IMG/VR virus record: IMGVR_UViG_3300042293_000555
Coordinates: 21,046 to 85,045 of that record
Strand: one strand, 5' to 3'
From: a virus
Length of the DNA: 64,000 nt
The notes below the pieces were generated by a model that saw only the letters and a program-made list of their open reading frames with translations, was not told the DNA's origin and ran no database searches. The position numbers and the translations under genes are program-made. Numbering within the stretch: position 1 is the stretch's first letter; the number at the start of each line of letters is the position of its first letter. Shown here piece by piece: positions 10,817 to 49,130 of the stretch.

Positions 10817-10828
10817 GGTAAAGTTAAT

Positions 10829-10853
10829 GGAGAGGAAGTAATTCCTCTCCTTT
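10829..10853 (+). terminator. intrinsic terminator
   Basis: GGAGAGGAA-GTAA-TTCCTCTCC plus Ts. Confidence 0.7.
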
Positions 10854-10887
10854 GTTATTCATTCATTCACTAAATTATATATTAAAA

Positions 10888-25959: not shown

Positions 25960-25981
25960 TAACTTTCCTCTCTATATATTT

Positions 25982-26013
25982 AAAGGTCTTCCCTACAAAG
26001 GAAGACCTTTTTT
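25982..26013. terminator. bidirectional terminator at convergence of the two arms
   Basis: AAAGGTCTTCC-ctacaaa-GGAAGACCTTT flanked by A/T tracts. Confidence 0.8.
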
Positions 26014-26015
26014 AT

Positions 26016-29000
26016 TTACTTAGTCAAGTCATCATCTTGTGATTGTTCTTTTTCCAATGCTTCCATCTTTTTCTTCTTTTCTAAAAGAATTTTTTGAGAT
26101 TGTTCTTTAAAACTTGATCTTCTTTCCATCCTTTCTTTAGGTGTTACTTTTTCAGGTTTTACAGATTTCTTAGCATTTTTACTGGTAGTATCTTTAATAT
26201 CTTTAGGTAGTGGATGTCTACGATTAACTAAAGCATCAATTTGTTTCTTTGAAAGTTCTTTACCTTCAGGAAGATTTTCAAGTTCTTTTCTATAATCTTC
26301 TCTTTGTGCACTAACTACTTTTCTTTCAATTCTTTCTTCATCCCAAGCTACCTGATCAAAAATTGGTTCAGTAAATACTCTTTCTGATTCTTTACCAAAT
26401 CCCATATATGAATCTCTAAACAAACTTGGAAGTATAATTTTACGAAATTTTTCTCCTTGATCTGAATTTGATACCTGACCATCAAACCATTTTCCTGCAG
26501 ATTTTAAAAATTTATTTACATCAGTAATATAAGTCATTACTCCATTATTAGAAACCATGTTTTTATATAAATCTATAGGATTAGTATACATTGTTGCTGA
26601 TTGAGATAATTGTAATCCCCTATTTACTAATAAATTATGCCATTTTCTTTTATTAGAATCTTCTTCATCGTCATCATCCCACAGTGTTGCATGAGCAAGA
26701 ATTGTAAATGATATCCAAGCTAAGGTCATAGACAAATCTGCCATAAGAGATTTCATATTTCTTAAATCTCTTTCAGTAAACTTACCATCACTAAGTAATT
26801 TTTCATATCCTGAATTTTCATTTATAAGTTCTCTACCTGAAAGTAGGTTAATAGGTGTAGCTATAAATTTTCTCATTAGTAACTTAAGAGTAAGTATTGA
26901 TGATTGTGCTATATTAAGATTTGATCTTACACCAAATATTGATGCTAAACCTAACCCTGCTACTGCTCCTATACCTATACCCCATCCACCACCAATCATC
27001 ATTACCCCTGTAAGTGCTCCATGTATTGCACCTGATGCTTTAGTGTGTGACCACAATCTACCTTTTTTACCTTTCTGTCCTGTTACAAGGTCATCATGTT
27101 CAAAAGCAATTCTACCATAAATTTGCATAGAAAGCCAAGTTTTAAACATAATTAATGCTTTACCTACAACATTGGATTTTAACATCATACCACGTAATTG
27201 ATCATAGTTACCATGTGCAGTTACAATAGCATCAGTTACCTTAGTTCTAAATAAAGTATAAGTTTCACCTTTATTCTGTTCCCAAGCAAGTATATTTTCT
27301 TCAGTTCTAAAATCAGGTTTTAATTTACCATCAACATTTAATGCATCCCATACATTACTTTCTTTACCACTAATACCTTTAATAGGTGTATCTAACATAA
27401 TTGCAACCATCAAGGGAGTCTGATTCATATACTCAGTCCTTTTAGTTAATTGCATTGGTGTAATTGCATTGACTTTTGAAAAAGGTGTTTTTGTACTTGC
27501 TTTCTGTAACTCATTAGTAGCATCCTGAAGAATATCAAATTTGTTAATTAACAAACTTGCTTTCTTTGCACCATTAGGTGTTACCCTTGATTTATTACCA
27601 AGTATACCTTTTATAAAACTACCTGATACAATATGTGCTGCTCTATAAAAATGTTTAGATTGAAAATGATCACCTGTTGATGCAATTATTAAGTTAGCAA
27701 TTTGTCCTTCTATAAAGTTAGTAATTGCTGATTTAATACTAAAACCTAAGTTGATAAATGTAATATGACTTAATAAGTTAGTAAAAACTGCTTCGAAAGA
27801 TGCTCTTTTACCTAATGATTCTCTTATATCTTCTAACTCTTTTTTCAATACCGGATTTGATTCTTCATTAATCATTTTATCAAGCTCTTTCTTGAGTTTC
27901 TGATCTTTAAAAGTAAGTAATCTTCCTGAAACTATACCCATAAGTTTACCAGTAAGTCCTTTTCTCTCATTTAAAGGTAGAGTACTTGCAGTAAGATGTA
28001 TATCACCTTGATTACCTAACACTACTCTATTATACCAATCTTCAAATTGAGAAATTGCCTTATTTCTAAGACCTTTTATTTCTGTTTTACCATTTATTTT
28101 AAGAGTTTCTGACATAGAAGTTTTTACACTTTTACCTGTTTTACCATAATGATTTTTTAAAATATTAATGTAAGGCAACATTTCTTGTCTTGCATTATAT
28201 TCATGAGCCATCTTAGAATAGTATTTGATAATTTTAGGTAAATTAACTGAATGTTCTTCTACAATGTTTGCCATTATAGCTTTTTCAATAATTTGTCCTA
28301 CAGGAATACTTTCACCATATTTCTTTTTTAATTCTACACCATCACTAAGCTCTAATAAATCAGTAAGGTATTTAACAGCTTTAGATGACAGTTCTGAATA
28401 AGCAATAGATGATTTATGATTAACTGGTTTACCATGCAATTTAGCAAACTTAATCATTTCAACTCTTGATCTTTTATCAACTTCTTGTTTGTTGTCACTG
28501 ATAAATGCAGAATTTACTTTTGGTTCACGTTGATTGGTAATTATATCAACATTGTCATAAGTGTTTGATTCTTGTGCATTTATACCAAATCCCATTTTTA
28601 ATTCCTGATAATATGCTGCTGCCATTTTTATCAACTTCTTAAAGAAACTGATATTAGGGTCAGCATAAATTTCAGTAATTGCTTTTTTTACCATAGGTAA
28701 TGAGTTGGAGAACAACCTTGATCTAATTTCTTCAGGAAATTGTTTCATGATGTTGTCCATCTCTTCAGAAATCAAATCATAGTATTCCTTTAACTCAGAA
28801 TGAGCTTCAATTACTTTAAATGATTCATCATAATACCCAGTAGGGGTAGTAGTTTCTTCCATTACATAAGTATCAGAATCTGCACTAAGTTTTCTATTGG
28901 TTACAGCTTTAAATTTTCTTGGTATAGAGTAGTTATATTTATAAGTAGGGTTAACTACTAAACCTTTATAGGTTATAAAACTTGTACTGTTAATATTAGC

Positions 29001-30569
29001 AGAAGAAATAAATGGATTGTGAGCCATTATATCCATTTGTAATTGATCAAAATCTTTCATTTCCAATTCACTCTCAAGACCTACACCCCTTTGTTCTAAA
29101 AATGTTTCAGTATAAAGTTGTTTCCATTTTAAGAAATTTCTAATACTCTTCTTTTGCCCTTCCAATTCTTCTTTATAACCTATAGCACTGATGTTAGATT
29201 TTACATTATCAGTATAACCATCATCATCTTTAAAAAACTCAGCAAATTCAGGAAACTCATCCTGTATTTCCTGCATTCTTCCTAAGTCAAAAGTTATTGT
29301 ATTTTCTCTAAACCAAGTTTTCTTTTTATCAAAAGCTCTTAGTAACCTTTTACTTCTTGCACCTATCTCTTCAGTGTTAAATGCTATATTGACTTCCTGA
29401 TTATATTGAGCCATAAATGAATCTTTAAAGTCAGAAAAATCACTTGTATATCTTTGAGTCAACTTACCACTTCTCTTACCTGTTTTAGATCTTTGAAAAA
29501 ATAAATCAAAAGATACCTGTTTACCTAAAAATAAACCTGAGAGAGTTTGCTTTAATTGTTTCAATACTTTCTCTGCTTTAACTAATGCTGCATTGTGTCT
29601 TTCTTCAAATGACTTATATTCACCAATGTGTTCTGCCCAGTTAGCTTGAAAAGCATCCATAATTACCTGTGGCAGAGTACCATTATTACTAAATATACCT
29701 TTAGATATATCCATTAACAACATATCTATCATATTTGCATCAGGTAATGCTTTTACAATTTCATCATAAGTCATAGTATCATACATCTTCTTAACTCTTG
29801 GATTAGAGTTTACAACAGTTGTTACTATTTCCTTATATGTTCCATTTAACTGAACCTCATGTTTTTTAAAATCAGCTGCAATTTGATTAAGTATTTGTTG
29901 TACTTCATCAGGTAATACTGTAGCTCTTTTAGTAACAGGGTCATATATCTCATGATCAAAAAATAAAGGATGAGAATCAATGTTAATACCATCAATAGTT
30001 TGATTTGTTTGGGTAATCTCCATTGCCTTATAGAAGTTAATAATTCTTTTAGCTTCTTCAGCATTCTCAAATATCTCTTTATTTGCTACAGGGTCATCAC
30101 CCAACTTACCTGAGTTTAACAGCTCATACACTCTTTGAAAATCTTCAAGTGCCTGATACCTTAATTCAGCTAAAGTAAGTGGATTCTCTTTACTTAACTT
30201 ACTTATTTCAGCTTCTAATTCAACAATCCTATTTTGCAGTTTTACCTGTAACTTACCATATCTCTTAGCAGTATTAGGATCACTATCTTTAATTTGTTCA
30301 ATAGTTGTATTAAGATTTGAAATTCTATTTTTATACAGAGTTACTAAAGACTTTTTAAAATCTTTAGTTTTTTCAAAGTTTGTTTTGAAATCCATATCTT
30401 CATCTGCATCTTCTTCAAAACTAAAATCATCATCTTCTACACTAAAAGGACTAAAAGATTCTCTTGCCATAAGAATCTTAATTTTATTCTGAACACCTTT
30501 ATCTTTCAGTAATAGTTTAAACTGTTTTTCAGTATAAACTTTTCCCATAAATTCATAAGTACAGCCCAT
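26016..30569 (-). CDS. large virion cargo/ejection protein (~1517 aa) with C-terminal hydrophobic segments
   Basis: Downstream of the vRNAP gene; Gly-rich TM-like stretch GALTGVMMIGGGWGIGIGAVAGLGLASIFGV; probable start MGC at 30569. Confidence 0.7.
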   Translation of the reverse strand: MGCTYEFMGKVYTEKQFKLLLKDKGVQNKIKILMARESFSPFSVEDDDFSFEEDADEDMDFKTNFEKTKDFKKSLVTLYKNRISNLNTTIEQIKDSDPNTAKRYGKLQVKLQNRIVELEAEISKLSKENPLTLAELRYQALEDFQRVYELLNSGKLGDDPVANKEIFENAEEAKRIINFYKAMEITQTNQTIDGINIDSHPLFFDHEIYDPVTKRATVLPDEVQQILNQIAADFKKHEVQLNGTYKEIVTTVVNSNPRVKKMYDTMTYDEIVKALPDANMIDMLLMDISKGIFSNNGTLPQVIMDAFQANWAEHIGEYKSFEERHNAALVKAEKVLKQLKQTLSGLFLGKQVSFDLFFQRSKTGKRSGKLTQRYTSDFSDFKDSFMAQYNQEVNIAFNTEEIGARSKRLLRAFDKKKTWFRENTITFDLGRMQEIQDEFPEFAEFFKDDDGYTDNVKSNISAIGYKEELEGQKKSIRNFLKWKQLYTETFLEQRGVGLESELEMKDFDQLQMDIMAHNPFISSANINSTSFITYKGLVVNPTYKYNYSIPRKFKAVTNRKLSADSDTYVMEETTTPTGYYDESFKVIEAHSELKEYYDLISEEMDNIMKQFPEEIRSRLFSNSLPMVKKAITEIYADPNISFFKKLIKMAAAYYQELKMGFGINAQESNTYDNVDIITNQREPKVNSAFISDNKQEVDKRSRVEMIKFAKLHGKPVNHKSSIAYSELSSKAVKYLTDLLELSDGVELKKKYGESIPVGQIIEKAIMANIVEEHSVNLPKIIKYYSKMAHEYNARQEMLPYINILKNHYGKTGKSVKTSMSETLKINGKTEIKGLRNKAISQFEDWYNRVVLGNQGDIHLTASTLPLNERKGLTGKLMGIVSGRLLTFKDQKLKKELDKMINEESNPVLKKELEDIRESLGKRASFEAVFTNLLSHITFINLGFSIKSAITNFIEGQIANLIIASTGDHFQSKHFYRAAHIVSGSFIKGILGNKSRVTPNGAKKASLLINKFDILQDATNELQKASTKTPFSKVNAITPMQLTKRTEYMNQTPLMVAIMLDTPIKGISGKESNVWDALNVDGKLKPDFRTEENILAWEQNKGETYTLFRTKVTDAIVTAHGNYDQLRGMMLKSNVVGKALIMFKTWLSMQIYGRIAFEHDDLVTGQKGKKGRLWSHTKASGAIHGALTGVMMIGGGWGIGIGAVAGLGLASIFGVRSNLNIAQSSILTLKLLMRKFIATPINLLSGRELINENSGYEKLLSDGKFTERDLRNMKSLMADLSMTLAWISFTILAHATLWDDDDEEDSNKRKWHNLLVNRGLQLSQSATMYTNPIDLYKNMVSNNGVMTYITDVNKFLKSAGKWFDGQVSNSDQGEKFRKIILPSLFRDSYMGFGKESERVFTEPIFDQVAWDEERIERKVVSAQREDYRKELENLPEGKELSKKQIDALVNRRHPLPKDIKDTTSKNAKKSVKPEKVTPKERMERRSSFKEQSQKILLEKKKKMEALEKEQSQDDDLTK

Positions 30570-30570
30570 G

Positions 30571-33500
30571 TTAATCACATTTAGTTTTTATAATTCCTTT
30601 TTGAATAAGTTCCTGTATTTGTTCTTCTATTTCCTGTTCTTCAGTAAGTTGAGTTTCTTCACTAACCATTGCTTTAACTATCTCTACATTATCAGGAGTA
30701 TTAGACATCAGCAATTTAAATAAATTTTCATTCACATCCTTATTATCACTGTAATTATTAATTAAATCCAATAACTTTTTAATCTCTGTAAGTCCTTTTT
30801 CATCTGCTTCATATTCAGTATCATTCTGTATTGTTTCTATAGCATCTATTAAGGCTTCCTGTTCCTGATCACTTAAATCTTCTTTACTACTAAGTTTATC
30901 TATTGTTAATCTTGCATTTGAAATATTCTTTAAAATCCCATCAACTTTATTCATCAACTTATCTAAAGAATTTGCTGCATCACCTGTAAAAAAGTAATAT
31001 GTAAGTGACTTATATAAATTATCAAATTCTTCAGGACTTACTTTAGTTGGTAATGGAGTAACAAACTTTTTAAATCCTTCTACATCTTGATTAGAACCTA
31101 ATATATGTATTTGTTCAGGTTCAAATACTATTATAAATTTTTCATCAGTATATATGTCACCTAATGGATTTTGTATTAACAATCCATCTACATCAATGTC
31201 ATCATTAGCTAAATTATTAAAAATATTTATACTTTGATAGTTTACTGGTTTAGGTTCAAAATCATTTATTAGTTCAATGGCTTCATTTATTTCACTTTTA
31301 GGTGCATTGTTATTTCTTAATTCATTTATATTATTTTGTAATTTTGATAACTGATTTTTATTATAATAAAAATTTTCTTTATCAGTTGATGTTTTAAAAA
31401 GTTTAGAACTTTCTCCATACTTTACATCTTTAATATTTACAATAGCAGTAGTTCTACTTTCTTCAGATTTATTTGTTACATTATTAGGGTAAAATACATA
31501 TTTGCCATTTATATCTGTTGTAAAATAAATACCTTTTCCACGATTAGTTTTTCTAAATTCAGATAAAGGTTTTCCTCCAAAATGATAAACAATATCTTTT
31601 ACTTTACTATTAGGAAATATAGTATCTAAATATTGAGAATATTGTTCAGCAGTACCAATAGAAGATAATTCAGAATTAGTATCAAATAATTCTTGTACTC
31701 CTGGTTTAACTTCATTTCCAAACTTACTATACTTAACTGATGCACCTTTATATGGTTTAACAGTAGTAGGTTGATAAACTACTTTGCTACCTTCTACAAT
31801 GGGTGCTCCTGTTAAATCAGATAATTCTTTTAGTTTTTCAAAATCTTCGTTAGAAAGAGTCAGATTATTATTACCTTCATTATAATAATCATAATTATCA
31901 AGTAACTCAATTTTATCAATGTTGTGTTGAGTAGCATTAATAAATAATTCATCATAAGAATATCTTAACTCATCATCTAAGGTTAATCTAATAGCATACT
32001 GACCTTGATTTGTATATCTTTTCTTTTTACCTTTATAATCAATTAATGCACTACCTATATCTTGTAAGTAACTTTCCATTATAGGTGAATCTCCTTTAAA
32101 AGAAAGCTTGATAGCACCATGTGGAACACTTTTTGATTTACTTGAATAAGTAGCTAATTCCATTGGAATATTCTTACTCATTAAATCAATAAATAATTGT
32201 ATTGCATCTGAAAGAGTTTTTGCTCCTGCATTATTCATATATGCACCAATATGATGATGCACCCCACCAAAATCAGATACTTTCCATTGATTTTTTAATT
32301 GTTGAAATACTTTGGTTTCATTAGTTTTAAATTTAGTTATTACTGATAAATAGTTTTGAGCTGAATTATTAATGAATAAATCTGCATCAATATTTTTTAT
32401 TAATTCATCAAAAACTAAAACTTTTTCTTGAATAAGTTTATCATCACTTGAATCATCTCTTCTTGTACGAGTTTTAACTAATGTATTTTTTTCTTCTTCA
32501 TTAAAAAAAATATTAATAATGGTATTTATTGATGCAATATCTTTTTCTTGAAACAATTGAGGATATAATTGCCTAAACTCACTATGTTTTTTATCTGTAA
32601 ATACATTATGTAATAATAGTAATTTTTCTAAAAAATTAGCTCTTCCCTTATTTGTTAATTTGTGTAATGAAGGCATTGTTTTAAAAACATGAAGTACATT
32701 TTCTACTCTACCTAAAAATGTAATATGTTCATAATGCATATTGATGTATTCTTCAGATTGAGGTCTATTTTCATATTTTAAAGGAGAATATTCCAATAAA
32801 TTTATCCTATGACCATATTGCATCATTTGTGCAAAATGTTTTAATCTAAAATCCTTATCTAAAGCAGCAATGTTTATATCAGTATAATTAATAGATTTTT
32901 CTTCAAGTTTAAAATCATGAATTTTATTATACTCTTTACTGATTAAAGAAGCTAAAAACTTTCTGATGTTATTTATAAACTCTAAAGCCTTTTGAAATAA
33001 TGTCTTGTTTTCAGTTATTGTTTTTAAATCAATTTTACCTGTAACAAGTCTTGCAATAGTTTCTACTATTGCTTCTTCTATTTGTCCTTTTTCATCTAAC
33101 TCAGGATATAACTCTTTAACTTCTGCAAGTACTTGTTTACCATAAGTAGAAGTCTGAATTTCATTTGATAAACTTTTATACAGCTTAGAGTTATCTTCTT
33201 TAACCTGTTCAATAAATGGGTGTGCAAATTCATGCCAAGCAGTTTCAGGAGTAACCTTAGCTAAGTTAATATAAACTCTACCATCTTCAAACTTACCTGA
33301 ATATGGTAAAGAATTATCATTTACAGTTTCATAAGGAATACTAAACTTATCACTTAATGTTTTTAAAATATCTTCTACATTATTAGGGTCAATACTACCT
33401 TTATCAAACTTAGAATATTTAACACCATTGATGTTATCTATCTGTTTGAATACTAATTTATTAGGTACTATTTTATTACCATCTTCAAAGAATAATTTCT

Positions 33501-33675
33501 CATTCCATTGAGGGTCATTGGCAAAGTACTTTGACTTTGCCTGACCTTTCAATTCTGTATGTAGTTTTCTAAATTGTTTTAAATCTTTTACATTTAGAAA
33601 CTCATCAATAACTCCTTTAGTTCTAAGGAATGATTTAGCATTTGCTTCTGATGTTTTAAATGGTTTACAACTCAT
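30571..33675 (-). CDS. polyvalent virion protein: zincin metallopeptidase plus ADP-ribosyltransferase-like domain
   Basis: AWHEFAH...EE; VYH..GIYFT..IVFEPEQIHILGS (ART-PolyVal-like pattern). Confidence 0.65.
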   Translation of the reverse strand: MSCKPFKTSEANAKSFLRTKGVIDEFLNVKDLKQFRKLHTELKGQAKSKYFANDPQWNEKLFFEDGNKIVPNKLVFKQIDNINGVKYSKFDKGSIDPNNVEDILKTLSDKFSIPYETVNDNSLPYSGKFEDGRVYINLAKVTPETAWHEFAHPFIEQVKEDNSKLYKSLSNEIQTSTYGKQVLAEVKELYPELDEKGQIEEAIVETIARLVTGKIDLKTITENKTLFQKALEFINNIRKFLASLISKEYNKIHDFKLEEKSINYTDINIAALDKDFRLKHFAQMMQYGHRINLLEYSPLKYENRPQSEEYINMHYEHITFLGRVENVLHVFKTMPSLHKLTNKGRANFLEKLLLLHNVFTDKKHSEFRQLYPQLFQEKDIASINTIINIFFNEEEKNTLVKTRTRRDDSSDDKLIQEKVLVFDELIKNIDADLFINNSAQNYLSVITKFKTNETKVFQQLKNQWKVSDFGGVHHHIGAYMNNAGAKTLSDAIQLFIDLMSKNIPMELATYSSKSKSVPHGAIKLSFKGDSPIMESYLQDIGSALIDYKGKKKRYTNQGQYAIRLTLDDELRYSYDELFINATQHNIDKIELLDNYDYYNEGNNNLTLSNEDFEKLKELSDLTGAPIVEGSKVVYQPTTVKPYKGASVKYSKFGNEVKPGVQELFDTNSELSSIGTAEQYSQYLDTIFPNSKVKDIVYHFGGKPLSEFRKTNRGKGIYFTTDINGKYVFYPNNVTNKSEESRTTAIVNIKDVKYGESSKLFKTSTDKENFYYNKNQLSKLQNNINELRNNNAPKSEINEAIELINDFEPKPVNYQSINIFNNLANDDIDVDGLLIQNPLGDIYTDEKFIIVFEPEQIHILGSNQDVEGFKKFVTPLPTKVSPEEFDNLYKSLTYYFFTGDAANSLDKLMNKVDGILKNISNARLTIDKLSSKEDLSDQEQEALIDAIETIQNDTEYEADEKGLTEIKKLLDLINNYSDNKDVNENLFKLLMSNTPDNVEIVKAMVSEETQLTEEQEIEEQIQELIQKGIIKTKCD

Positions 33676-33689
33676 AGTTTATTATTATT

Positions 33690-39600: not shown

Positions 39601-42600
39601 TCCTGTACTAAAAGTTTCTGTACTTTAACAGCAGTTGCTACAACATCAGTAGGTTTAAAAGTAACAGGGTCAACTCCCAACTCTTCACAAAGTTGTGTTT
39701 GTTTAAGTTTTACCAAATCTGCAAACAGATTAGTAAATTGTTCCTGTAACTGTTTACCTGAATAAGTTTGACCATTTAACTTAAATCCTTCAATATCCAT
39801 AATACCATTACCAAATAATACTTTGGTAAGCTGAGTACCCATACTTACAGTATCTTCTTTTCTTTTGAAAGATTTAAAAGGTACATCTAACTGAATCTTA
39901 AAGTCTTTTCTATTAAGTGTAAGAGATGATTCAAGAATTTTATCTACATCAAATTCAAGTTCATCTTTCTTACCTTCTTTTGGTTTCTTATGTTCAATAG
40001 CAGTGCCATCAGGATTAAATACTTTTAATGCATTGTTGTTTGCACCAACTTTATTACCTGATTCATAAGATGCTCTTACATGTTTACCAGTCTTCTTTTC
40101 TACTGCTTCCAAAGTTTCTCTGATAACATCCAACTCCATACCTTTAGTAAGTTGTGGAATAAGTGGATAAGATGATGTCTTAATATACATCATTCTCATT
40201 ACATCTTGTTCAGCATCATATATTTGACCTGTATATACAGGTTTAATAGGTTGTAATACTTTCTTTACTACTGCTCTTTGAGCTTCAGTCATATCTTCTA
40301 ATGGTGTACCATCAGCAAATAATTTCTTAGCTACCGCTATTTCCTGTGGAGTAATATTGATTGCAGCATCAGCTACCCTACCCATATTTTCTAATATGTG
40401 TAAGTGTTCCTGCCAGGTAGTATACTCCTGTGCATTAGTAGCTTCCATATAAAAGTAATTGTTTGACTTAGGATACTTAGCATTAAAGAACTTAATAGCT
40501 GATGCTTTAGCTGCTTTTAACTTTTGAGTTTCTAATTCATCTTTACCTTTTACAGGCATAGCCATAATCTTGTTATACTCTTCTCTGTCAAATGCTTTAT
40601 TATCCAACAACTTAGTTAAGAACTCAATGTTGTCAGCTATCTTATATCTGTCATCTAAGAATATTTGAATATACTGCTCATTCTCAGACTTATTAATTTT
40701 AGAACCTGGAGCTATCATTGCAGCTAATCTCTTACCTACATTTACAAAGGTTTCTTTAACCTGAGTCATTGCAGGATCATTTGGATTAGCTTTATAGTAT
40801 ACAGCAGGGTCACCAATAACTGTCATAAACATATTGGCATTAGCTATAATCTGATTAATCTCAAAGTCAAAAGCTGCAATTAGAGTATTGGAAATCTTTG
40901 AATCTTTGTCCTTAGCTTTTTTAATCTTCTCTAAATATTCTTTTTCAACAAAATCCAATTCTCCAAACTCATTCAATATTCCACCTTCTTTCCAATTATC
41001 CAATTTCTCATTAACTGATGACTGTACAAATGATTGAATAGCAGGAAGTATTTGAGATTTATAAGCATCAAGGTCTTTGAGAGTAGTGCTACTGTTATTG
41101 ATAAATTCTCTAAGGTTTACTTTTTTACCATTAGTAAGAGTAATCTCTAAATCATTTAACTTAGGTAAAAAGAATAACATACCAGCACCATTATCATAAC
41201 TCTTGATATTGGTTTTCTTATTCTTCTCTTTATAAGCAAACATTCTTGTAATTTCAGGTAGAGCAATTTGCTCATACAACAGTTCCAAGATATCTTCATG
41301 TACTCCTACATTTCCTTCACCATCAACATTATAGAAATTAGAATTAGTTAAATCAAAAGCAGGTGCTTTAACAACAACCATTGTTGACTTATCTGACATT
41401 GTTGGGAAAAAGAATCTTGATACTCTTAAAGGAATAGCTAATAACTTTTTACCTGTACTGTAAGTCTTAGTTGTTGAACCCTGTTTCATATCTTGAAACA
41501 TAGTAATCTTAGTAGCTTCATGGTCAGTATCACTTAATGTTGTGATATCATTATCCTTATAACTCTTCTTACCTTTTTCAGTAATAGCTGTCAGACCCAA
41601 GTGAGATATACCAAACTTAGAACCTAAACCAAAATCACCATTTGGATCCATCAAACTTAACCAAAGAGATTGTTTTGAAAAAGACAATGATTGAAGTTGT
41701 GTAAGGATGTCATCAGTTATCTTCTTTCTTTCTTGAGGTGATTTACTGGAAGCATCCTTCAACTCATTGAATCTGTCAGTAACATATTTCAATGCAGTAA
41801 ATCCATAAATAGATTTTTTACCATCTCTAAATGAATTAGTTACAATGTTTTTAGAATACTTTGACTGAAGATATGCAAGTGTTGATCTGATTGCACCATC
41901 ATCTAAAGGATTACCTGTAAGGTTAGTTTCTGATGTAAGGTCAGTTTCAACATTTCCATTTTTTACTCCCTGACACCAAGCTGCAAGTTTACCAATTGCA
42001 CCTTTAGTATTATCACTCTTCATAAAGAATCCTGTAGCTGTCAATAACTCACCATCACTAAATATTTTATTAGTAAAGATTTGTTCTATTGCTGCATCAG
42101 CTAATTCAATACCAAAATAAGATAACCATATTTGTACTTCACTAACAGCTTCTGCTCTCTCTTCTTTAGTCAACTTCATGTAACCCTTAACTGCTCTTCC
42201 TACAACGTGTTCTTGAAATGGTACAATAGTAAGAACACTTTCACCCTTTTCATTCTTATTAAGGGTTACACTATAAGGTGAACCATTCATTGTCATCTTC
42301 TTAGTGGTATCAAGTTTGTTACCTATCTGAGCTAAGAACTTACTGTGAGCAGGATTATTAGGATTAAGTGTAACTGTACCTGATTTACCTACACCAAGTT
42401 TACTTTTTACAATTTCAACTAATGGTTTATTATCTACATTTGCTAAATCTTTTGGACCTGCAAACCAAGAGTCATACTCTTCTAACAAATTATTTGCAAC
42501 ACCTGTATCAACAATGTATTCTCCATCTTCTTCAGTGATAAGTGGATTACTTACTGCAAATAAATTATTATTCCAAGTAGATGCAATCTTCTTAACAATA

Positions 42601-45600
42601 GCTGATTGATTGGTATCTGTTACCCTAAGTGTATACTTACCTGTATTAAGGTCAAAAGAATACATGGCAAACTCCATCTTCAAAGAGTGAGTGCCCATCT
42701 TATTTGCAAATGAATTTTGAATCTGTTTATCAGCAGCTCTTAATTTTACAATAGCTTCTTTTAACCAAGGATGTGTATCAATGTACAAATCTTCAAGTAT
42801 CTTCATCTGTATATCAAAGTCTACAGGTTGATCAGCAAGAAATGCTTGTATAGTATTGAATACAGTATCAAAGTCTACAAAGGTTGTTACACCAAATGCA
42901 CCTAATACAGGTAATCCTGTTTTACTATTAATGTTGGTAATCTTTGCTAAGAATAATCTAAGTTCAGATGTAATACTATTTTTACCATTCTTTTCTAATG
43001 ATGTCTGAGAATAATTATCTTCTCTTTCAGACATTGCTTCATCTTCACCATACTCATCTAATTCTTCAGACTCTTCTTTGTCAGGATTCTCATTCATTAA
43101 ATCCTTAGCTTCTATTGTAATTTCTTCTTCACCCTGTTCATTCTTAGTTGTCTTAGCTTTAATACCTGCAAACTTGTACAACTTATTAAATGCTTCATCA
43201 ACAATTGTATCTAAGTTCTTTTCAACAATTTTAAATTTATCTAATGCCACTTCATATTTGAGTACAAGTTCTTTTATCTTAGCATCATTTTCATAATTAG
43301 GTACTAACTTTAATGAAGCTAATGTATCAGTTAAATTTTTCTTATTATCTGACATTAAACTCATCAACTCTTTTTTAGCATTTACAGCAAGTTCTCCCTT
43401 GTTTAGTTTAGTAGAATTATCTAATTTAAAGTTGTCTGATAACTGATTAAATAAGAAGTCTATAAGTTGAGCTTGGTGTACCTGACTCAACCCTTCAATT
43501 TTAAATATTTGTTTCAAAAGTTCTTTAGCATCTTCATCTGCCATTTCAGCAGGTGAAAATGATTCTCTATCAACATCAGGTATCTCATCACTAAAATATT
43601 CATTGACCCACTTAATCTGATTTTCAGCTACTTTAATCAGGTGATTAATTTCATTGGCATCACCTTCACTTACTTTATCATCATTAGGTTCTAAGTGACT
43701 TACAATTTCTTTAGACTGATTAGTGTTTTCTGCAATAGCCTGTTTAGCATCTTCAAGTTTTTCTTCAGCAGTTTCACCAATGAAGTTGTAGTCTTCAATA
43801 GTACCTAATGCAGCATCTAATTCTTCATCAGTTAATACATCAGTTATATAAGTAGCTTTCTGTTTAACTATAGGTGCTGCTTTTTTAACAACTTCATTTG
43901 TTGTCTTTCTACTTACAGGTGCTTCATCTGTTGGAGCATAAGTATATACAGGTTGCATTCTTGTTACATACATAGGTTCTTCTTGAGTACCTACATTGTA
44001 ACTACCTATATTAGTTTCAAGATGATCTTTTACATACTCTTCATAAGTATCTGAAGATTGTTCAAAAACTATTTCACCATTTTGATTTTCATAAGCTTTA
44101 ATTACAGGAAGTGCTGATTTAAATGTTGGATTAAATAAAAGGTCAGGATGATTAAAGAACTCTTTAAGTAACTTTACCTTTTCATCAGTTTCAGCATTAT
44201 CCATAAATGTTTCAGCATCTAATATAACAGGTGCATCCATACCCGGAAACCAAAAAACAACATTTCTGCTTTCAGTATAAATATAAGGAAGTAGTTTTGT
44301 ACCACTTGTTTCCCAAGATTTTAATTTAATGTTATGTACCTTTTGTGCATCTTCCTGAATATTACCTGTTGTATTTATTTTTTCAGATTTAACTATTACA
44401 TTTTGACTCAATATTCCATCAAGAATTTTTATTTGATCTATTTCACCAAATGCTGTAGCAAAATGTTTTTTAGCAATTAGATAAGGTGTATATTTATTAT
44501 TTTTATGTTTATAATATTGTTTACCAACCAAATATGTAATAACACTTTGAAATAATGTTTCTGATTGGGTTGATGTAAGTTTTCTTGAAAAAGTAGGAAA
44601 TACCATATAAGTTGGTTCACCATTTTCATCAGTTCCCCATCTTCTTATATCTAAAGGTTGATAAAATAATTTCTTTTTTTCAATAGTTTCTTTATTTACA
44701 ATCTTACCTTCAAAAGGTTTACCATTAAACATTATCTTACCATGCTTATCCATTACTCCAATTTGAGATTGTGGACTTGCTTCACTAATTGATTTTTCTT
44801 TATCCAATTTCATTGGACTAAATGTACCACTCTCTTTCTTAGTAATTACAATGTTAAATGGTTTACCATTAGCTTTAGCATTAAGGGCAGCTCTTCTTAT
44901 CTTTCTTACTTTAGCAATTGCTTCAGCTCTCTGTCCTTCAAACTTATCCTGATACCACATTACATCATGTACAAATGCAACATAGTCACCATCCTCATCT
45001 TTAATAAGCATAGGAAGGTTATCTTCATATTCCTGAGTGGACATGAAGTTAGGATTCTCATCAAGTTTTCTTTTTAAATAACTCTTATATGTTTCTGTTT
45101 TTCTTTTACCTTTTTCATCTTTTAATACTGTACCATAAGCAGGATTTAAAGGATCTTCTTCTCTAACAGGAACTTGTAATTTATCTAACTCAGCACCTTC
45201 TAAAATTACAACCTCTAATACTGTACCTGGATTATATTGATCAGGATGCAGTAACTTTAAAGGTTTGGTAAGATTACCTTCATTAAGTCCTTCTTCACCA
45301 TACTCATATCCAATATCTACTAATGTTTCTCCATCTTCTTCAAATACAGTTGTTGTTGGAATAGCTTCTCTTGAAGCATATCCAAAAGTAGAATCTACAT
45401 TTTCCAACTCTACAGTTACTGTAGATGTAGTACTCTTAGGTAGATTAATAACTCTACCATCATCATTTAATTCTAATTTTTTTTCAGGTTCTAATTGTTC
45501 AGCAGTTTCTTCTAATACTTTTTCAGCAGCTTTTTCATCAGTGTGTTTTACTTCTTCTTCCAATAAACCTAACAGTTCATCAGCAAGAGATGCTTTAGAT

Positions 45601-48600
45601 TTAGCAAACAATTTATTGTAAATTGCTTCATAGTGTGAAAGTGGTATTTGTGGTAAATCTTTATTAGCTCTCCATCCTTCTTTCAAAAGATTAAATGCTT
45701 TTTGAGCACCTGCTACACTACCACTATTGTGAAAAATAAAATCTCTCAAGAACTGTTCAAATGAAGGTACTTCTCCACCTTCACCCATCATACTATTTAC
45801 ATAGTCCATTACTATCCCAGCAGCTTTTTCCTTTGCTTCTTTAGATAATTCTTTCTCTTCATAAGGAGAAAAAGATTCTCTGTCAAAGTCTTCTTCAGCA
45901 GGTGAGAAACTTTCAGCTACAATTTTCTCTATAACAACTCTATTAGGATCTCTTGAATCAACTGATACTTTAAAGTTAGGTGCAAGACCATTTTTAATAG
46001 CTTCACGTAATTCTTCTACTGCTGCTTTTAATTTATCTAAAAGATCAGGATCTAATTTAGAACTGTCTAATGGAAGTATCAATATCTTTTTTCCACCTGC
46101 ATCAATGAACTTTGTTGAGTTCATAATCTTTAACAGGGTTTCAGAAAATACTGGTGTATTAGAAACTCTGGTATACTTATCATTTTCAAAACTCAATTTT
46201 CCATCAGCCACTAATGATTGCAATAACAATTCTGCATTAGCTTTACCTAATACTCTAATTATTGGTGCAACAGCTATTTCACCCTTAGCACTTTTTATAC
46301 TGTTAACAATTGATAATACCTTAGCTCTAATTGCAGGGGGAAAGTTAGAGAATAATTTATTCAACTCATTATCAGTGGGTACATCACCCAATGCTTCATG
46401 TAAAGCAGCTAATTCTGCTGCAAGTTTTTTTCTTTCCTCATCTTCATCTATTTCTGCTTCATCATCAAGTTTACCATTCTTCTTAAGAATATCAACTGCT
46501 TTCTTAACTTCATCAGGATATTTCTGTACAAATTCTTTTTCAGCATCAGACAATGGTTCATTCTTAGCAAACTTAACTGCTACATTTGCCAACATCTTTT
46601 TATCTATAGGTGGAAGTTTCTTTTTTTCTTCTTCTTCCTTCTTTAAAGCTTCTTTTATCTTATCATCATTCTTCTTTGCAAGTACAGCTTTTTCAATATT
46701 ATTAAGTACTTCAAATTGTTCTCTAATACTACTTGCTTGTTCATCAAGAATCTTACCTTTATATTTAGCTAACTTTTTATCAATAGCTTCCATATAGGCA
46801 TCAGTACCTTTTAAATCTTCTAACCCACTATCTTTTTCTACATCTGTAAGTAATTTGTTTTGAGCTTTCAATGATCTTTGATAAGCTGGATCAGTTATTT
46901 TATTAAACTGTTTGTTATTTTCATCAATGATTTTAGTAATCTCTTTCTTTTTTTCCTGTAACTCAACAAGTTCTCTTGCATCTTTTATCTTCATTGCATC
47001 TTTAGAGAACTTCTCTTGGATACCAGCCTTCTGTGATTCATGTGGGTCAATAGCATTTGCATAAGTATTTTCCAACAAATTATCAATGTTGTATCCAACT
47101 TCTACCCCAACTTTACCTGTAGGAACATTGCTGAATCCAACTACCCCATCAGTACTACCATCACTTGATTCATAAATATCAATTTCACCACGTAAACTAA
47201 GATCATTATTTCTTAGAGCAGAAGTAATAGCAGTTTCTGCTTTACCCTTTTGTTCTCTAATTTCAGTATCAATAGTTTCATTAAGTTTATTTAAAGTATA
47301 ATTGTTAGCTCTATTGTTATATACTTCTGAAGAGTTTCCATACTTTGTCATAGACTCCTGAAATACTTTTTCAAGGTCTTTAATCATTGTTACTCCTTCT
47401 TTAGCTCTTTCTCTTATTTCTTTATCTACTTTTGTATCATTAGCTATTTTTTCATAATTTGTGATAAGAGATTCAGTAGTACCTGATTTAAAAGCTATCA
47501 TTGCCTGAACACTTAATATTTTATCACCAACAGCTTTAGCTTCTTCTTTCTTACCTGCTTTTACTAATTTTTCCTGATGTTTTTGTAATTCTAAAACTTC
47601 TTTGTTAGATTTATTTAATGTTGTTAAACTTTCAATTAATCCCATGTTGTTTCCAACATTACCAATTGAATCCCACTTTTTAATCATCTCCTGTTGTTCA
47701 ACATATCTTTCAGCTTTTGTTTTACCTCCCCATCTTTCTTGTGGGCCACCATCACGAGATTGCATATAACCTGTAGTTCCTGCTGACCCTGCTGCTGCCC
47801 AAAAAGCAGTTTCAAAGGTTTGCCAACCTTTCCACTTTTGTTCACCATTGATTTCTTCATAACCAAAAAAGTTATTAAAAGCATCTGTAAAACCATACCC
47901 TTTATCAGTAAATGGAATAATTGAAGATTTATTACCTACACCATATTGATAACCAATATCCCCACCTAATCCTTCTATTAAAGTTTCTTCAACAACTTCT
48001 TGACCCATTTCAGATAAAATTTCTTTACCTGACCATTTTGAACCACTCTTAAGTAATTCTTGAGATAAATAATGTCCTCTTGTAAACAAACCTGCTGTAG
48101 CTAAGTTTAATGCCATAATAGGTACATAGTTTACACCTGCTGTAATTGCAGCACCTTTTTTAGCATTAGCTTTAGCAATCTTATCTACATCAGGATTATC
48201 TAATCCAAATTGTTTAATTGCTGCCTTTTCTGCTTTCCTTGCTGCCCATGCTGCATCTTGTGAATTTGCTCCTGATTCTATAGCATTATCATAAGCTTCT
48301 TGAAAAGCTGTTTGTTTATAACTTTTAAATTCAGGAGAAAGGTCATTCATTACTTCATCATAAACCTTATCATAAGTTTCATTAGCAGCTAAGTATCCTG
48401 CTGTAGATGTAAGAAAATGAGCAGTAGCAACTTTAGCTGCCAGTTGTGGTACTTTTAATGCACTTAATACACCACCTGAAGCTATACCTTGTACAATAAA
48501 TGGAACTATTCCACCTACTACAGAACTACCTTGATTAACTATATATTCTGTCCAACCACCATCTATAGCATTCCATTCATCACTATTTCTTGTTTGGAAA

Positions 48601-49130
48601 TAAGTTTGTCTGTAAGCATCAATTTCTTCAGCAGTTCTTGAAAAAACATTTTTTCTATCACCATCTTCTACATCAAGTAATAAATCTACACCTTCATATA
48701 ATGCTCTTATAGGATTTATGTTAGTTGTTTCTGAAGATGCCCCACCTGTTAATATGTGAGTTGCTGCATTACCTGTAGCAAGTGCTATCCCAAAATCTAA
48801 CATTTCAGGTGCAGAACCAATAATGTTTGAAAAGCCTGCTACTGTTGCACTTAATAAATTAGCCGTTCCACTTGATAAAGTTTCCCACCAATTATCTACA
48901 TCAGTATTTCTTTGTTCTTGTTCAGCAGCTTTAACCATTTGTTGTATTTCTACATTTTGTTCATAAGAACTTAATACAGAACCTGATGAAGAAACAGGTG
49001 AATCTCCATAGCTACCACTTGCTACAGAGCCTGAATCAGTTATCTTATTTGCAATTTTTGTCCAATCTGTTTTTATAGTTGGATCTATTGGTGTACCACT
49101 TTGGTTTACTGGTTCTATTGGATCAGGCAT
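33690..49130 (-). CDS. giant virion RNA polymerase polyprotein (crAss-like two-barrel RNAP, degenerate zincin, C-terminal SF1 RecD/Dda-like helicase)
   Basis: RIPTSGH..S and GLDFDVDK (DFDVD at 38967-38981); GGGGTGKTT, IIDECSM, GDNAQLPP, MRQ, YALTSHKAQGSEF, YVALSRA. Confidence 0.88.
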   Translation of the reverse strand: MPDPIEPVNQSGTPIDPTIKTDWTKIANKITDSGSVASGSYGDSPVSSSGSVLSSYEQNVEIQQMVKAAEQEQRNTDVDNWWETLSSGTANLLSATVAGFSNIIGSAPEMLDFGIALATGNAATHILTGGASSETTNINPIRALYEGVDLLLDVEDGDRKNVFSRTAEEIDAYRQTYFQTRNSDEWNAIDGGWTEYIVNQGSSVVGGIVPFIVQGIASGGVLSALKVPQLAAKVATAHFLTSTAGYLAANETYDKVYDEVMNDLSPEFKSYKQTAFQEAYDNAIESGANSQDAAWAARKAEKAAIKQFGLDNPDVDKIAKANAKKGAAITAGVNYVPIMALNLATAGLFTRGHYLSQELLKSGSKWSGKEILSEMGQEVVEETLIEGLGGDIGYQYGVGNKSSIIPFTDKGYGFTDAFNNFFGYEEINGEQKWKGWQTFETAFWAAAGSAGTTGYMQSRDGGPQERWGGKTKAERYVEQQEMIKKWDSIGNVGNNMGLIESLTTLNKSNKEVLELQKHQEKLVKAGKKEEAKAVGDKILSVQAMIAFKSGTTESLITNYEKIANDTKVDKEIRERAKEGVTMIKDLEKVFQESMTKYGNSSEVYNNRANNYTLNKLNETIDTEIREQKGKAETAITSALRNNDLSLRGEIDIYESSDGSTDGVVGFSNVPTGKVGVEVGYNIDNLLENTYANAIDPHESQKAGIQEKFSKDAMKIKDARELVELQEKKKEITKIIDENNKQFNKITDPAYQRSLKAQNKLLTDVEKDSGLEDLKGTDAYMEAIDKKLAKYKGKILDEQASSIREQFEVLNNIEKAVLAKKNDDKIKEALKKEEEEKKKLPPIDKKMLANVAVKFAKNEPLSDAEKEFVQKYPDEVKKAVDILKKNGKLDDEAEIDEDEERKKLAAELAALHEALGDVPTDNELNKLFSNFPPAIRAKVLSIVNSIKSAKGEIAVAPIIRVLGKANAELLLQSLVADGKLSFENDKYTRVSNTPVFSETLLKIMNSTKFIDAGGKKILILPLDSSKLDPDLLDKLKAAVEELREAIKNGLAPNFKVSVDSRDPNRVVIEKIVAESFSPAEEDFDRESFSPYEEKELSKEAKEKAAGIVMDYVNSMMGEGGEVPSFEQFLRDFIFHNSGSVAGAQKAFNLLKEGWRANKDLPQIPLSHYEAIYNKLFAKSKASLADELLGLLEEEVKHTDEKAAEKVLEETAEQLEPEKKLELNDDGRVINLPKSTTSTVTVELENVDSTFGYASREAIPTTTVFEEDGETLVDIGYEYGEEGLNEGNLTKPLKLLHPDQYNPGTVLEVVILEGAELDKLQVPVREEDPLNPAYGTVLKDEKGKRKTETYKSYLKRKLDENPNFMSTQEYEDNLPMLIKDEDGDYVAFVHDVMWYQDKFEGQRAEAIAKVRKIRRAALNAKANGKPFNIVITKKESGTFSPMKLDKEKSISEASPQSQIGVMDKHGKIMFNGKPFEGKIVNKETIEKKKLFYQPLDIRRWGTDENGEPTYMVFPTFSRKLTSTQSETLFQSVITYLVGKQYYKHKNNKYTPYLIAKKHFATAFGEIDQIKILDGILSQNVIVKSEKINTTGNIQEDAQKVHNIKLKSWETSGTKLLPYIYTESRNVVFWFPGMDAPVILDAETFMDNAETDEKVKLLKEFFNHPDLLFNPTFKSALPVIKAYENQNGEIVFEQSSDTYEEYVKDHLETNIGSYNVGTQEEPMYVTRMQPVYTYAPTDEAPVSRKTTNEVVKKAAPIVKQKATYITDVLTDEELDAALGTIEDYNFIGETAEEKLEDAKQAIAENTNQSKEIVSHLEPNDDKVSEGDANEINHLIKVAENQIKWVNEYFSDEIPDVDRESFSPAEMADEDAKELLKQIFKIEGLSQVHQAQLIDFLFNQLSDNFKLDNSTKLNKGELAVNAKKELMSLMSDNKKNLTDTLASLKLVPNYENDAKIKELVLKYEVALDKFKIVEKNLDTIVDEAFNKLYKFAGIKAKTTKNEQGEEEITIEAKDLMNENPDKEESEELDEYGEDEAMSEREDNYSQTSLEKNGKNSITSELRLFLAKITNINSKTGLPVLGAFGVTTFVDFDTVFNTIQAFLADQPVDFDIQMKILEDLYIDTHPWLKEAIVKLRAADKQIQNSFANKMGTHSLKMEFAMYSFDLNTGKYTLRVTDTNQSAIVKKIASTWNNNLFAVSNPLITEEDGEYIVDTGVANNLLEEYDSWFAGPKDLANVDNKPLVEIVKSKLGVGKSGTVTLNPNNPAHSKFLAQIGNKLDTTKKMTMNGSPYSVTLNKNEKGESVLTIVPFQEHVVGRAVKGYMKLTKEERAEAVSEVQIWLSYFGIELADAAIEQIFTNKIFSDGELLTATGFFMKSDNTKGAIGKLAAWCQGVKNGNVETDLTSETNLTGNPLDDGAIRSTLAYLQSKYSKNIVTNSFRDGKKSIYGFTALKYVTDRFNELKDASSKSPQERKKITDDILTQLQSLSFSKQSLWLSLMDPNGDFGLGSKFGISHLGLTAITEKGKKSYKDNDITTLSDTDHEATKITMFQDMKQGSTTKTYSTGKKLLAIPLRVSRFFFPTMSDKSTMVVVKAPAFDLTNSNFYNVDGEGNVGVHEDILELLYEQIALPEITRMFAYKEKNKKTNIKSYDNGAGMLFFLPKLNDLEITLTNGKKVNLREFINNSSTTLKDLDAYKSQILPAIQSFVQSSVNEKLDNWKEGGILNEFGELDFVEKEYLEKIKKAKDKDSKISNTLIAAFDFEINQIIANANMFMTVIGDPAVYYKANPNDPAMTQVKETFVNVGKRLAAMIAPGSKINKSENEQYIQIFLDDRYKIADNIEFLTKLLDNKAFDREEYNKIMAMPVKGKDELETQKLKAAKASAIKFFNAKYPKSNNYFYMEATNAQEYTTWQEHLHILENMGRVADAAINITPQEIAVAKKLFADGTPLEDMTEAQRAVVKKVLQPIKPVYTGQIYDAEQDVMRMMYIKTSSYPLIPQLTKGMELDVIRETLEAVEKKTGKHVRASYESGNKVGANNNALKVFNPDGTAIEHKKPKEGKKDELEFDVDKILESSLTLNRKDFKIQLDVPFKSFKRKEDTVSMGTQLTKVLFGNGIMDIEGFKLNGQTYSGKQLQEQFTNLFADLVKLKQTQLCEELGVDPVTFKPTDVVATAVKVQKLLVQEAIDKGYGKQDIDALQISYIYDEDGKVTDFKFEMPIWMSANSNRFESLLVSIVQSRIVKMKFPGNSFVAGSEEGYKFKYNLDDVKENRIVWTDKWSGSLKPATFDDKGNFISAQVLVPAKFRDSEGNLINLMEKDPSGKGYKYVDETNLGFRLKKGKIAEELMSITSFRIPTSGHVSASQFEIVGFLPEESGDLMILPANMTEQKGLDFDVDKETAYNLWTTSLDSGTIIPLNKNSKNVSRLEEKLIQNELIKIHKSIFTSSNAEVQKKINGVLSIAFAKQQAQMIDDILEGEKDDTNFSPLNSEYQKGKMFLGASGKVGTGAYSLDVTSHSLFEQAKANGNQLILMADEETPLELTFGELTSHGKLGEPKTLKVSKVEFIIARLKALNTKEGDDAADLIKDNENFADDFIEGQASINPAFAKILEDYSSLQRPIAEVLMELQNIAVDNEKEQVMGKVNINGITLDISKVMALLGFDKGADGNSIQFLFLSQPIVRDYVKMMNNASSNLAEYDPDKEIKVLNALAKKYGFSLAKPVEGNGEALTNATMLGQLTNHSALFQQEVLQRFQLLQEYGLKLRSVQTSINIDSKGLGKSLPEVQEKLESIKSLFKNKSIKNAGALIGEIASPTTSRTPEMLTKEEFVNLGDNVWVKPTTISGHIAIAGLSFANGLWEKHFPYNSKVVAALNKEIFSILSLGEVSESKKIERKQLILKEIKKFMNTVAAESTLFENNTAQGERHRLFFDSREDNKVSLASYVQKLMKIPYFANNKLFQVMEYETSTVPGKPSLIKFNNAAAANFDESYMTNALLQLMESKISLPSFNGETYNTRMLAQDMINYAILEGGVQEVIQFAKFIPIDYLKRMGFSDALASLDLNGDAAAKFGITSEEVGSENYVPSRFAVQFAQNNTNILPKLDNLVNLDEEQKLKLIKKDKFTFADLKATAEVTPPFIVLRVNGENHLWGLHGTEYHKIIVAGINGMSEYDASARAVKSLITTRKKTKVKAPKTPLPVAGEATNMVSKERFGLGIDNISTVIKNMIADKSISPDLKKLAQAILPFVNNETKIVVSETIAKGKYNPGTNTITIPPRTAQADKNELIRVFLKETVHSITDNQLLKYLNPDGTLNNSLGEIPQHITDLLKIYKAARLGLEKKYGVDGINTVMEKIKKQKSIKTATEIEAAKKDENILLKQFEAKVLYGVTDILEFVEMMMTEPEFQTEMAAIDYGAGNKNLVDKFFDFIKQMFSDLGIAVGEGSITANAIKEIFNVMKDAKADVEAAEIDIDTTVWDTSKFSIFLNEDNEYEILADDGSLIDVAPTMEEAKIRFAEIVKSFEKTNEAKKNADIEEINFMVEAKDLVLNIDDMIINDYEEWSKLIKDVNLEDYNNYPFVQSYFKEAGAVAVPEEIDFINKNIDKFEAMLAKFDTKSPTELAEKLKDYTPPVILTQKKVDLSDDKDTDLNNEVEESGAFTAYELFPKVFANEEQSNALDSMNNFLKDKSAKTYVLTGGGGTGKTTIMKKLLSNNPGLKVVGGAIGHNAKEVLKKSIGSRATISTIASMIGLKLDDASGTFMIDKYFDVSKSPLSGAQLIIIDECSMIDEEFLAHLSKVQKLVAPNAKIIFMGDNAQLPPIREKYSKLEGQDSPTFTAYSGNYTAHLSKSMRQEKDSMILTVANMVAANVRSNAIVKDVLEGKEAKLHSDEVQFKDSDQIDAAIEADLKKDKWGTKVIAFSNVIRKYWNGKARVMLFGEQGAKRKFNVGEMISPQFTDEKLKNQFGEEIGVYNGQHFEVTKVNEVPNGIAIAYYDTKTNKESYSTYMAYDLTIKSADGMEFNIRVNDESLDFKAFQAAQKSLYNYYSKLPRGEADRVKKTMYEKNKTAFRSVEYGYALTSHKAQGSEFNNVYVFKNDILSNGTSTKSKNQALYVALSRAKKKLTVIKDVFNPDDYLDLETFSPATEKELSLSEEPWTLETNECGI

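Follow-up and report, generated by a model that had tools for sequence, protein, structure and literature searches.

Crassviruses rank with the most abundant phages of the human gut and are also widespread in water. These phages pack and inject megadaltons of protein, one of the injected proteins being the polymerase that initiates infection. Within this study, three consecutive cargo genes were analyzed on a stretch of 64,000 nucleotides (nt), referred to as the window, which covers positions 21,046 to 85,045 of the IMG/VR record IMGVR_UViG_3300042293_000555 and is part of a complete virus record of 85,045 bp with terminal repeats. The encoded proteins, which this crAss-like phage probably packages and injects along with its DNA, are poor in cysteine (Cys) and carry single Cys residues at those ends that face each other across the gene junctions. 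Comparison of related sequences strongly supports that, by way of these facing terminal Cys, each protein is tied with its tail to the head of the next one, following the gene order. The three genes are as follows:

33690..49130, minus strand: giant virion/cargo protein of 5146 amino acids (aa), first link of the chain
30571..33675, minus strand: 1034-aa accessory cargo protein, middle link
26016..30569, minus strand: 1517-aa protein of the phi14:2 g065 / crAss001 gp49 family, last link

The giant protein starts with a Cys-free N-terminus (MPDPIEPV), features Cys at positions 2386, 3148, 4766 and 5144, and ends with ...TNECGI. For the middle protein (MSC...KTKCD), Cys residues were found at positions 3 and 1033 and nowhere else, while the last protein begins with MGC, possesses Cys3 as its lone Cys and has a Cys-free C-terminus (...DDDLTK). 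The third gene was counted from its ATG (1517 aa) and not from an upstream GTG (open reading frame of 1520 aa), because the latter reading frame overlaps the previous gene and relatives begin with M-x-C at the ATG. The facing ends ...NECGI/MSC and ...KTKCD/MGC, the Cys counts of four, two and one, as well as the lack of a Cys at the outer end of the first and the last protein had been described in a first-pass annotation of the sequence and were confirmed in the translations. Altogether, the three proteins contain 7 Cys in 7,697 aa (0.091%) as compared to a background of 1.02% for the 33 plus-strand genes and 0.92% for the other minus-strand genes of the window. Moreover, none of the window's other genes encoding more than 100 aa features a Cys within five residues of either protein end. 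If 7 Cys were scattered at random over 7,697 positions, the probability that all four 3-residue segments facing a junction are hit amounts to approximately 840 x (3/7697)^4, i.e., about 2e-11, according to our own arithmetic.

The giant protein matches the virion structural protein family phrog_16227 (E 5e-240) and was aligned by blastp with phi14:2 g066 (E 3e-15) and crAss001 gp50 (E 1e-13). It is composed of a phi14:2 g067-like part, a g066-like RNA polymerase and a C-terminal helicase, the latter two being represented by the following features:

38967..38981, minus strand: DFDVD motif, giant aa 3384-3388, matching the signature DFDxD known from virion RNA polymerases of the crAss type
33804..35411, minus strand: Dda/RecD-like superfamily 1 (SF1) helicase domain, giant aa 4574-5109, identified by Pfam and phrog matches

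DFDxD was described as the signature of this polymerase type in the phi14:2 preprint (bioRxiv 10.1101/2020.03.07.982082). The helicase domain matches Pfam AAA_30 (E 3e-19), UvrD_C_2 (E 6e-12) and the Dda-like helicase family phrog_325 (E 3.5e-69). The closest cultured relatives are Flavobacterium psychrophilum FpV4-like phages, showing approximately 32% identity in the polymerase region. Regarding the 1517-aa protein, g065 (E 1e-5) and gp49 (E 3e-5) were obtained by blastp and FpV4 gp33 by tblastn (E 5e-22), and a phmmer search retrieved 626 relatives at E<=0.001. The protein features a single predicted, strongly hydrophobic segment at aa 1196-1214. Judged by its polymerase and its last protein, the block can be assigned to the Crassvirales virion RNA-polymerase cargo type represented by phi14:2 g067/g066/g065. 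Presence of such proteins in virions is known for relatives, as deduced from tandem mass spectrometry annotations for phi14:2, mass spectrometry for crAss001 and the annotation of FpV4 gp32 as virion structural protein.

In order to evaluate conservation of the terminal Cys, 120 homologues of the giant protein with 30–67% identity in the polymerase core, and 126 full-length last-link proteins representing clusters at 50% identity, were inspected. In the following, L-numbers denote related genomes or loci and P-numbers homologous database proteins. Among the giant homologues, 112 of 120 possess a Cys within the last six residues and three more at position -7; in 74 cases, it is the only Cys in approximately 4,000 or more aa, and the overall Cys content of the sample is 0.042%. 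Only the fusion proteins P0068, P0075, P0081 and P0122, described below, and P0073, which may represent a truncated gene call, are devoid of a C-terminal Cys. For the last link, a Cys within the first six residues, mostly as M-x-C, was found in 122 of the 126 representatives, of which none features a Cys within the last six residues; 73 of the 126 are single-Cys proteins. Gene contexts drawn from 16 related genomes revealed, together with the window, facing Cys at all distinct junctions inspected (21/21). These family-wide counts are stronger evidence against chance than the figure of 2e-11, and a chance origin of the terminal Cys was rejected on their basis.

The same arrangement was observed in cultured phages. 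In phi14:2, the lone Cys of g067 is its last residue, g066, the crystallized polymerase, possesses Cys only at positions 3 and 2179 of 2180, and g065 only Cys3. In crAss001, gp47 features only Cys2339 (of 2341 aa), gp50 Cys5, Cys1334 and Cys2404 (of 2412 aa), and gp49 only Cys5. Furthermore, the lone Cys of FpV4 gp32 is residue 4286 of 4287, and gp33 of this phage begins with MAC. Results obtained at the sequence level thus confirmed that the terminal-Cys pattern generalizes across Crassvirales. The crAss001 gene gp47 is located on the strand opposite to that of gp50 and gp49. Since the partners keep their terminal Cys in this arrangement, the feature acts at the protein level and cannot be a read-through or ribosome-bypass signal.

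Gene fusions and splits provided further evidence. In P0068, P0075, P0081 and P0122, giant and last link are united in one chain, and P0155 and P0165 represent further fusions of this kind as judged from the position of the last-link match. None of these six proteins possesses a Cys at the former junction, and two of them are entirely Cys-free (P0081, 5797 aa; P0165, 6106 aa). Fusion protein P0075 was compared with the unfused giant P0063 (76% identical) and the related last link P0152. It lacks exactly the tail end (...LSNKKKNCF) and, at the start of the head module, approximately 40 residues, and the alignment resumes on each side of these missing connectors. In L007, the giant is encoded by two genes, the first of which specifies 2000 aa with a lone Cys1999, followed by a protein beginning with MICTITYNGK... 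The break corresponds to residues ~1816-1829 of the window giant, which is Cys-free there. Hence, a natural split creates a new facing Cys pair, while fusions drop the junction Cys together with the flanking modules. The expectation that Cys pairs co-vary with gene splits, put forward in the first-pass annotation, was borne out accordingly.

The regions surrounding the terminal Cys are conserved as short modules, which are located in the window as follows:

33693..33773, minus strand: tail connector A, giant aa 5120-5146, ETFSPATEKELSLSEEPWTLETNECGI, with the Cys5144 codon at 33699-33701
33412..33675, minus strand: head connector A, aa 1-88 of the 1034-aa protein, MSCKPFKTSEANAKSFL..., with the Cys3 codon at 33667-33669
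30574..30642, minus strand: tail connector B, aa 1012-1034 of the 1034-aa protein, EEQEIEEQIQELIQKGIIKTKCD, with the Cys1033 codon at 30577-30579
30462..30569, minus strand: head connector B, aa 1-36 of the 1517-aa protein, MGCTYEFMGKVYTEKQF..., with the Cys3 codon at 30561-30563

Tail A (...[ED]W.....NECGI) is kept in L001, L002, L003, L011, P0015, P0016, P0025, P0030, P0032 and P0034 and persists despite differing preceding domains, namely the helicase in the window and in L002, and other domains in L001 and L003. Head A is an 88-residue module, MS(K)CKPFKTSEANAKSFL..., whose Cys is invariant in alignment A1. Tail B, ...LI[QRK]KGI[IV]KxKC[DN], is kept in P0004-P0008 and P0010 and also forms the C-terminal end of 13 giants, such as P0017-P0024, while head B follows the consensus MxCTYEFxGKxYT... 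Tail A (NECGI) is followed by head A (MSCKPFKTSEA) at 5/5 junctions, and tail B by head B at 4/4 distinct junctions (5/5 counting the L010/L012 duplicate); in L007, a more divergent tail of the B kind is likewise joined by a more divergent B-type head. In L010/L012, the giant ends in tail B and adjoins head B directly. The giant of L011 ends in tail A and is followed by a 594-aa protein combining head A and tail B, with Cys only at positions 3 and 593, and then by head B. L010/L012 and L011 are close relatives and thus form a natural swap, the window representing the L011 layout with a 1034-aa insert. In P0011-P0013, head A is placed directly on last-link bodies. Other classes of tail and head coincide in distant genomes, for example the tail ...LPEIKNC(N) with the head MACTV... 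in FpV4 and L014, and the tail ...D-A-x-x-x-K-[IT]-I-C with the head C-x-[IL]-I-P-x-V, found in L015 as well as in crAss001 gp50/gp49.

This pairing pattern would fit specific non-covalent docking locked by a Cys pair; since the sample of junctions is small and the genomes are related, docking by the connectors is put forward as a hypothesis. As the pairs within one chain differ, a protein bearing both a head and a tail would be kept from joining to itself. Docking domains of polyketide and non-ribosomal peptide synthases, in which cognate C- and N-terminal modules order giant proteins and orthogonal pairs prevent mis-ordering, may serve as an analogy only, since these are non-covalent and cytoplasmic, whereas the crassvirus proposal adds a Cys pair and packing in the virion.

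Based on these findings, a linear thread in gene order, in which cognate modules dock and a disulfide locks them, is proposed as the best and, in our assessment, probable explanation. Each protein end facing the next protein carries a short connector module with one Cys. Cognate tail and head modules would dock non-covalently, upon which the two thiols would form an inter-protein disulfide. The thread would run from the giant (polymerase and helicase) via the 1034-aa accessory protein to the 1517-aa gp65/gp49-family protein, the link substituting for the peptide bond of fused relatives. Such a link would hold the proteins at 1:1:1 during packaging and passage through the narrow tail, and the reducing conditions of the host cytoplasm would release it again. 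The disulfide chemistry is inferred by analogy with phage A4, and the roles in packaging and ejection as well as release by reduction are likewise deductions. Regarding the earlier proposal that a disulfide or another Cys-based link joins the chain, the head-to-tail link itself is supported by conservation, fusions, the split and the opposite-strand arrangement, the bond and its chemistry being putative. A conserved end-to-end tether would represent a concrete mechanism for co-packaging in a fixed ratio, ordered passage through the tail and release in the cell. Moreover, it would account for occurrence of the block as one, two, three or four genes and would provide a simple sequence rule for recognizing chain members and their order in metagenomes.

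A broader reading considers the modules as orthogonal plug-and-socket connectors which, together with the Cys lock, encode the protein order in the injected thread, making the block an extensible anti-host delivery line. It is regarded as a possibility somewhat short of even chances. The same pair is never used twice in a chain, and a new effector could therefore be inserted by adding one connector pair. Cognate connector pairs thus suggest a route for phages to add injected effectors; if the reading holds, the 1034-aa HExxH/ART-like protein of the window and the 594-aa protein of L011 would be such inserted effectors.

A disulfide with a matching sequence signature is known from the pre-ejectosome of cyanopodophage A4, for which cryo-electron microscopy showed the C-terminal helix of gp27 inserted in gp26 and locked there by a disulfide linking Cys1715 of gp27 to Cys5 of gp26 (PNAS 2025, PMC12002296). 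In the Anabaena phage A-4L genome, these are the only Cys of the 1717-aa and 1114-aa proteins, which are encoded by adjacent genes. A4 thus resembles the window in having large, capsid-packed ejection proteins from adjacent genes, with the only Cys three residues from the C-terminus and at position 5, respectively, and the window likewise combines near-C-terminal and near-N-terminal Cys in otherwise Cys-poor products of adjacent genes. In contrast to the two-link chain of the window, A4 features a single link, which joins two proteins within a pentameric ring, and lacks an RNA polymerase, alternative connector types and a middle protein with a Cys at each terminus. Only this one bond is described in the A4 paper, in which no family-wide sequence rule is stated. 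The first-pass annotation had stated that no description of a Cys-joined cargo chain was known. This holds for crassviruses, since literature on crassviruses combined with cysteine or terminal cysteine yielded no description of such a link, but it does not hold for phages in general, the bond between a C-terminal Cys and Cys5 being known in A4 (PMC12002296). New in this study are the cognate connector pairs, the four-Cys chain into which an accessory protein is inserted, and the precise connector excision in a fusion.

Within Crassvirales, the cargo of crAss001 was reported to comprise gp45, gp46, gp47, gp49 and gp50 in the consulted portion of the corresponding structural study, which also describes inter-subunit disulfides in other virion proteins and regards the ejection order as probably set by packing and mutual interactions; the cargo termini are unmentioned in that portion (Nature 2023, PMC10172136). 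For phi14:2, the excerpted preprint text reports the g065 and g067 products in virions as well as fusion of the three proteins in some phages, and does not mention cysteines (bioRxiv 10.1101/2020.03.07.982082). The window shares with both phages the homologous DFDxD polymerase core, the last protein and the terminal-Cys pattern; it differs in that the g067- and g066-like parts are fused with an added SF1 helicase, and in the extra 1034-aa protein preceding the last link. In N4-like phages (Schitoviridae), ejected proteins contain 0.00075% Cys vs. 0.865% for the proteome (Nat Commun 2024, PMC11445570). Their giant virion RNA polymerase and co-ejected proteins thus share the Cys depletion, with the difference that Cys removal is complete there. 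Retention of one Cys per junction-facing end against such depletion implies that these residues are under positive constraint.

Several observations weigh against a disulfide-locked chain. In view of the reducing bacterial cytoplasm and the anaerobic replication of gut crassviruses, such a chain leaves unexplained when and where the thiols would be oxidized. The giant retains three internal Cys (2386, 3148, 4766), and the giants of L010 (2358-22031), L011 (4005-21638) and L012 (2358-22031) begin with MCP(Y/G)PD..., featuring a partnerless Cys2, while the protein upstream of them (778-839 aa) is Cys-free. This Cys2 either has no counterpart, breaks the rule or stems from a wrongly called start. 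Furthermore, an inter-cargo bond is not mentioned in the available parts of the crAss001 and phi14:2 papers, and A4 represents an analogy since its proteins show no detectable homology: A-4L was absent among the tblastn matches listed for the 1517-aa protein and the C-terminal half of the giant, and phmmer and profile searches of the PDB with the last-link family returned coiled-coil noise and no A4 chain. FpV4 (L004) gp30 (9854-11650, 598 aa) possesses a single Cys5 (MKKKC...), the preceding gp29 being devoid of a C-terminal Cys; Cys5 may thus represent a further Cys of the N-terminal type that has no obvious partner.

The head-to-tail link might be of a different chemical nature, with a shared metal ion or another thiol-based link whose site is completed by the connector modules. 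The same comparative evidence (pairing, loss in fusions, gain at the split) applies to such a link, which needs no oxidant in anaerobic hosts, and acidic or amide residues are often found beside the Cys (NECGI, KCD, KCN, ECK, ECN). It is nevertheless considered unlikely, since each terminus offers one Cys and a conserved His or second Cys is absent nearby; positions from -1 to -7 and contexts such as NC, CD, CK, CGI and CIF are too variable for a fixed metal site, and the sole structure with such a signature, phage A4, shows a disulfide. Alternatively, the terminal Cys could bind another partner, such as a further copy, the portal or the capsid, or act as a redox-sensitive trigger. The partnerless Cys of the MCP... 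giants in L010-L012 and Cys5 of FpV4 gp30 are in line with this assumption, as is the use of disulfides between structural proteins by crAss001. Joint loss of both Cys and both modules in fusions, the facing pair at the split, the 0/126 C-terminal Cys of the last link and the co-occurrence of tail and head classes would all be left unexplained, so that this explanation appears more doubtful still. The least credible alternative, to which hardly any weight is given, interprets the TGT codons flanking the gaps as take-off and landing sites of ribosome bypassing, or as part of another recoding event, by which the three genes would yield one polyprotein. Both window junctions indeed read TGT ... 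stop ... ATG NNN TGT, the gaps measuring 29 and 13 nt, but at 30% G+C, TGT is the expected Cys codon. Retention of the Cys by crAss001 gp47 and gp50 on opposite strands contradicts recoding; in the window, the 'take-off' Cys is followed by one or two sense codons before the stop is reached. The spacing ranges from 13 to ~41 nt, and the gaps consist of A/T only, so that, judged by eye, their G+C content is too low to form a stable stem-loop. The signature of T4 gene 60-type programmed bypassing, in which a take-off codon directly precedes the stop, a matched landing codon is located on the same mRNA and the gap is structured, does not apply here, and recoding offers no reason why Cys is depleted across the remaining 4,000 or more residues.

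Three further candidates were rejected. A lipoprotein or acylation signal was dismissed as the Cys is located at positions 3-6 with no preceding signal peptide or lipobox. An intramolecular disulfide closing the middle protein would leave the single-Cys end proteins unexplained, and a remnant of a self-cleavage site was discarded on account of the fused forms lacking a junction Cys.

The C-terminal region of the giant varies among relatives. The helicase domain is missing from the L001 relative; it is present in L002 and many of P0017-P0036, while L001 and L003 feature unrelated C-terminal domains and other relatives carry YbiA/DUF1768 or ART-PolyVal domains at this end. Because of this variation, the region resembles a slot for changing payloads, placed before the conserved tail connector.

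For the 1034-aa middle protein, no confident family assignment was obtained. Searches by tblastn against GenBank phages as well as IMG/VR scans using the protein or the head-A alignment yielded no matches. Its homologues P0004-P0013 keep both ends and have the middle swapped. Two tentative features were recognized in the window protein:

33220..33234, minus strand: HEFAH (HExxH) motif, aa 148-152, motif only
31105..31593, minus strand: weak ART-PolyVal-like region, aa 695-857, tentative

HEFAH is a possible zincin-like site, for which no profile match was obtained; it is located in the sole part of the protein with a confidently predicted fold. The match to PF18760 (E 0.0075, 17.5 bits) remains under the cut-off of 31.2 bits, and an Atlas feature links the protein to polyvalent-protein clusters with a score of 0.92, which is a lead only. 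An AlphaFold2 model reached a mean predicted local distance difference test value (pLDDT) of 38, with pLDDT 70-89 at aa ~160-240 only. In its sequence features, the protein resembles the polyvalent proteins of phages and conjugative elements, which are delivered by phages to counteract defences of the host.

A short motif, E[ST]FSP, recurs in the giant and the last protein at the following positions:

30447..30461, minus strand: ESFSP, aa 37 of the 1517-aa protein, directly after head connector B
45900-45914, 45864-45878 and 43551-43565, minus strand: ESFSP, giant aa 1073, 1085 and 1856
33759-33773, minus strand: ETFSP, giant aa 5120, directly before tail connector A

These five occurrences compare to approximately 0.03 expected according to our own arithmetic with roughly assumed residue frequencies. 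The motif lies in acidic linkers, always at module borders, and the copy at aa 1856 is near the split point of giants in relatives. A role as protease site or in docking is conceivable. As a general feature of the family, ESFSP was rejected, since it is confined to the closest relatives.

Upstream of the giant, the window encodes two further Cys-poor proteins, namely at 49137-51704 (855 aa) and 51707-55702 (1331 aa), with one and four Cys, none of which is terminal. The 855-aa protein begins with MGRFYKTS, like FpV4 gp31. The gene at 55716-60506 encodes a 1596-aa virion structural protein (phrog_15100) with 21 Cys, a number equal to that of FpV4 gp29. Since the 855- and 1331-aa proteins are Cys-poor but this virion structural protein is not, Cys depletion marks the likely ejected set rather than all virion proteins. 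Downstream of the last link, transcription converges at 25959-26016, where the plus-strand genes end (25959) and the minus-strand structural and cargo block ends (26016). The plus-strand genes ending there include exonuclease-like and other replication-type products, and the GC skew switches sign at the same convergence point.

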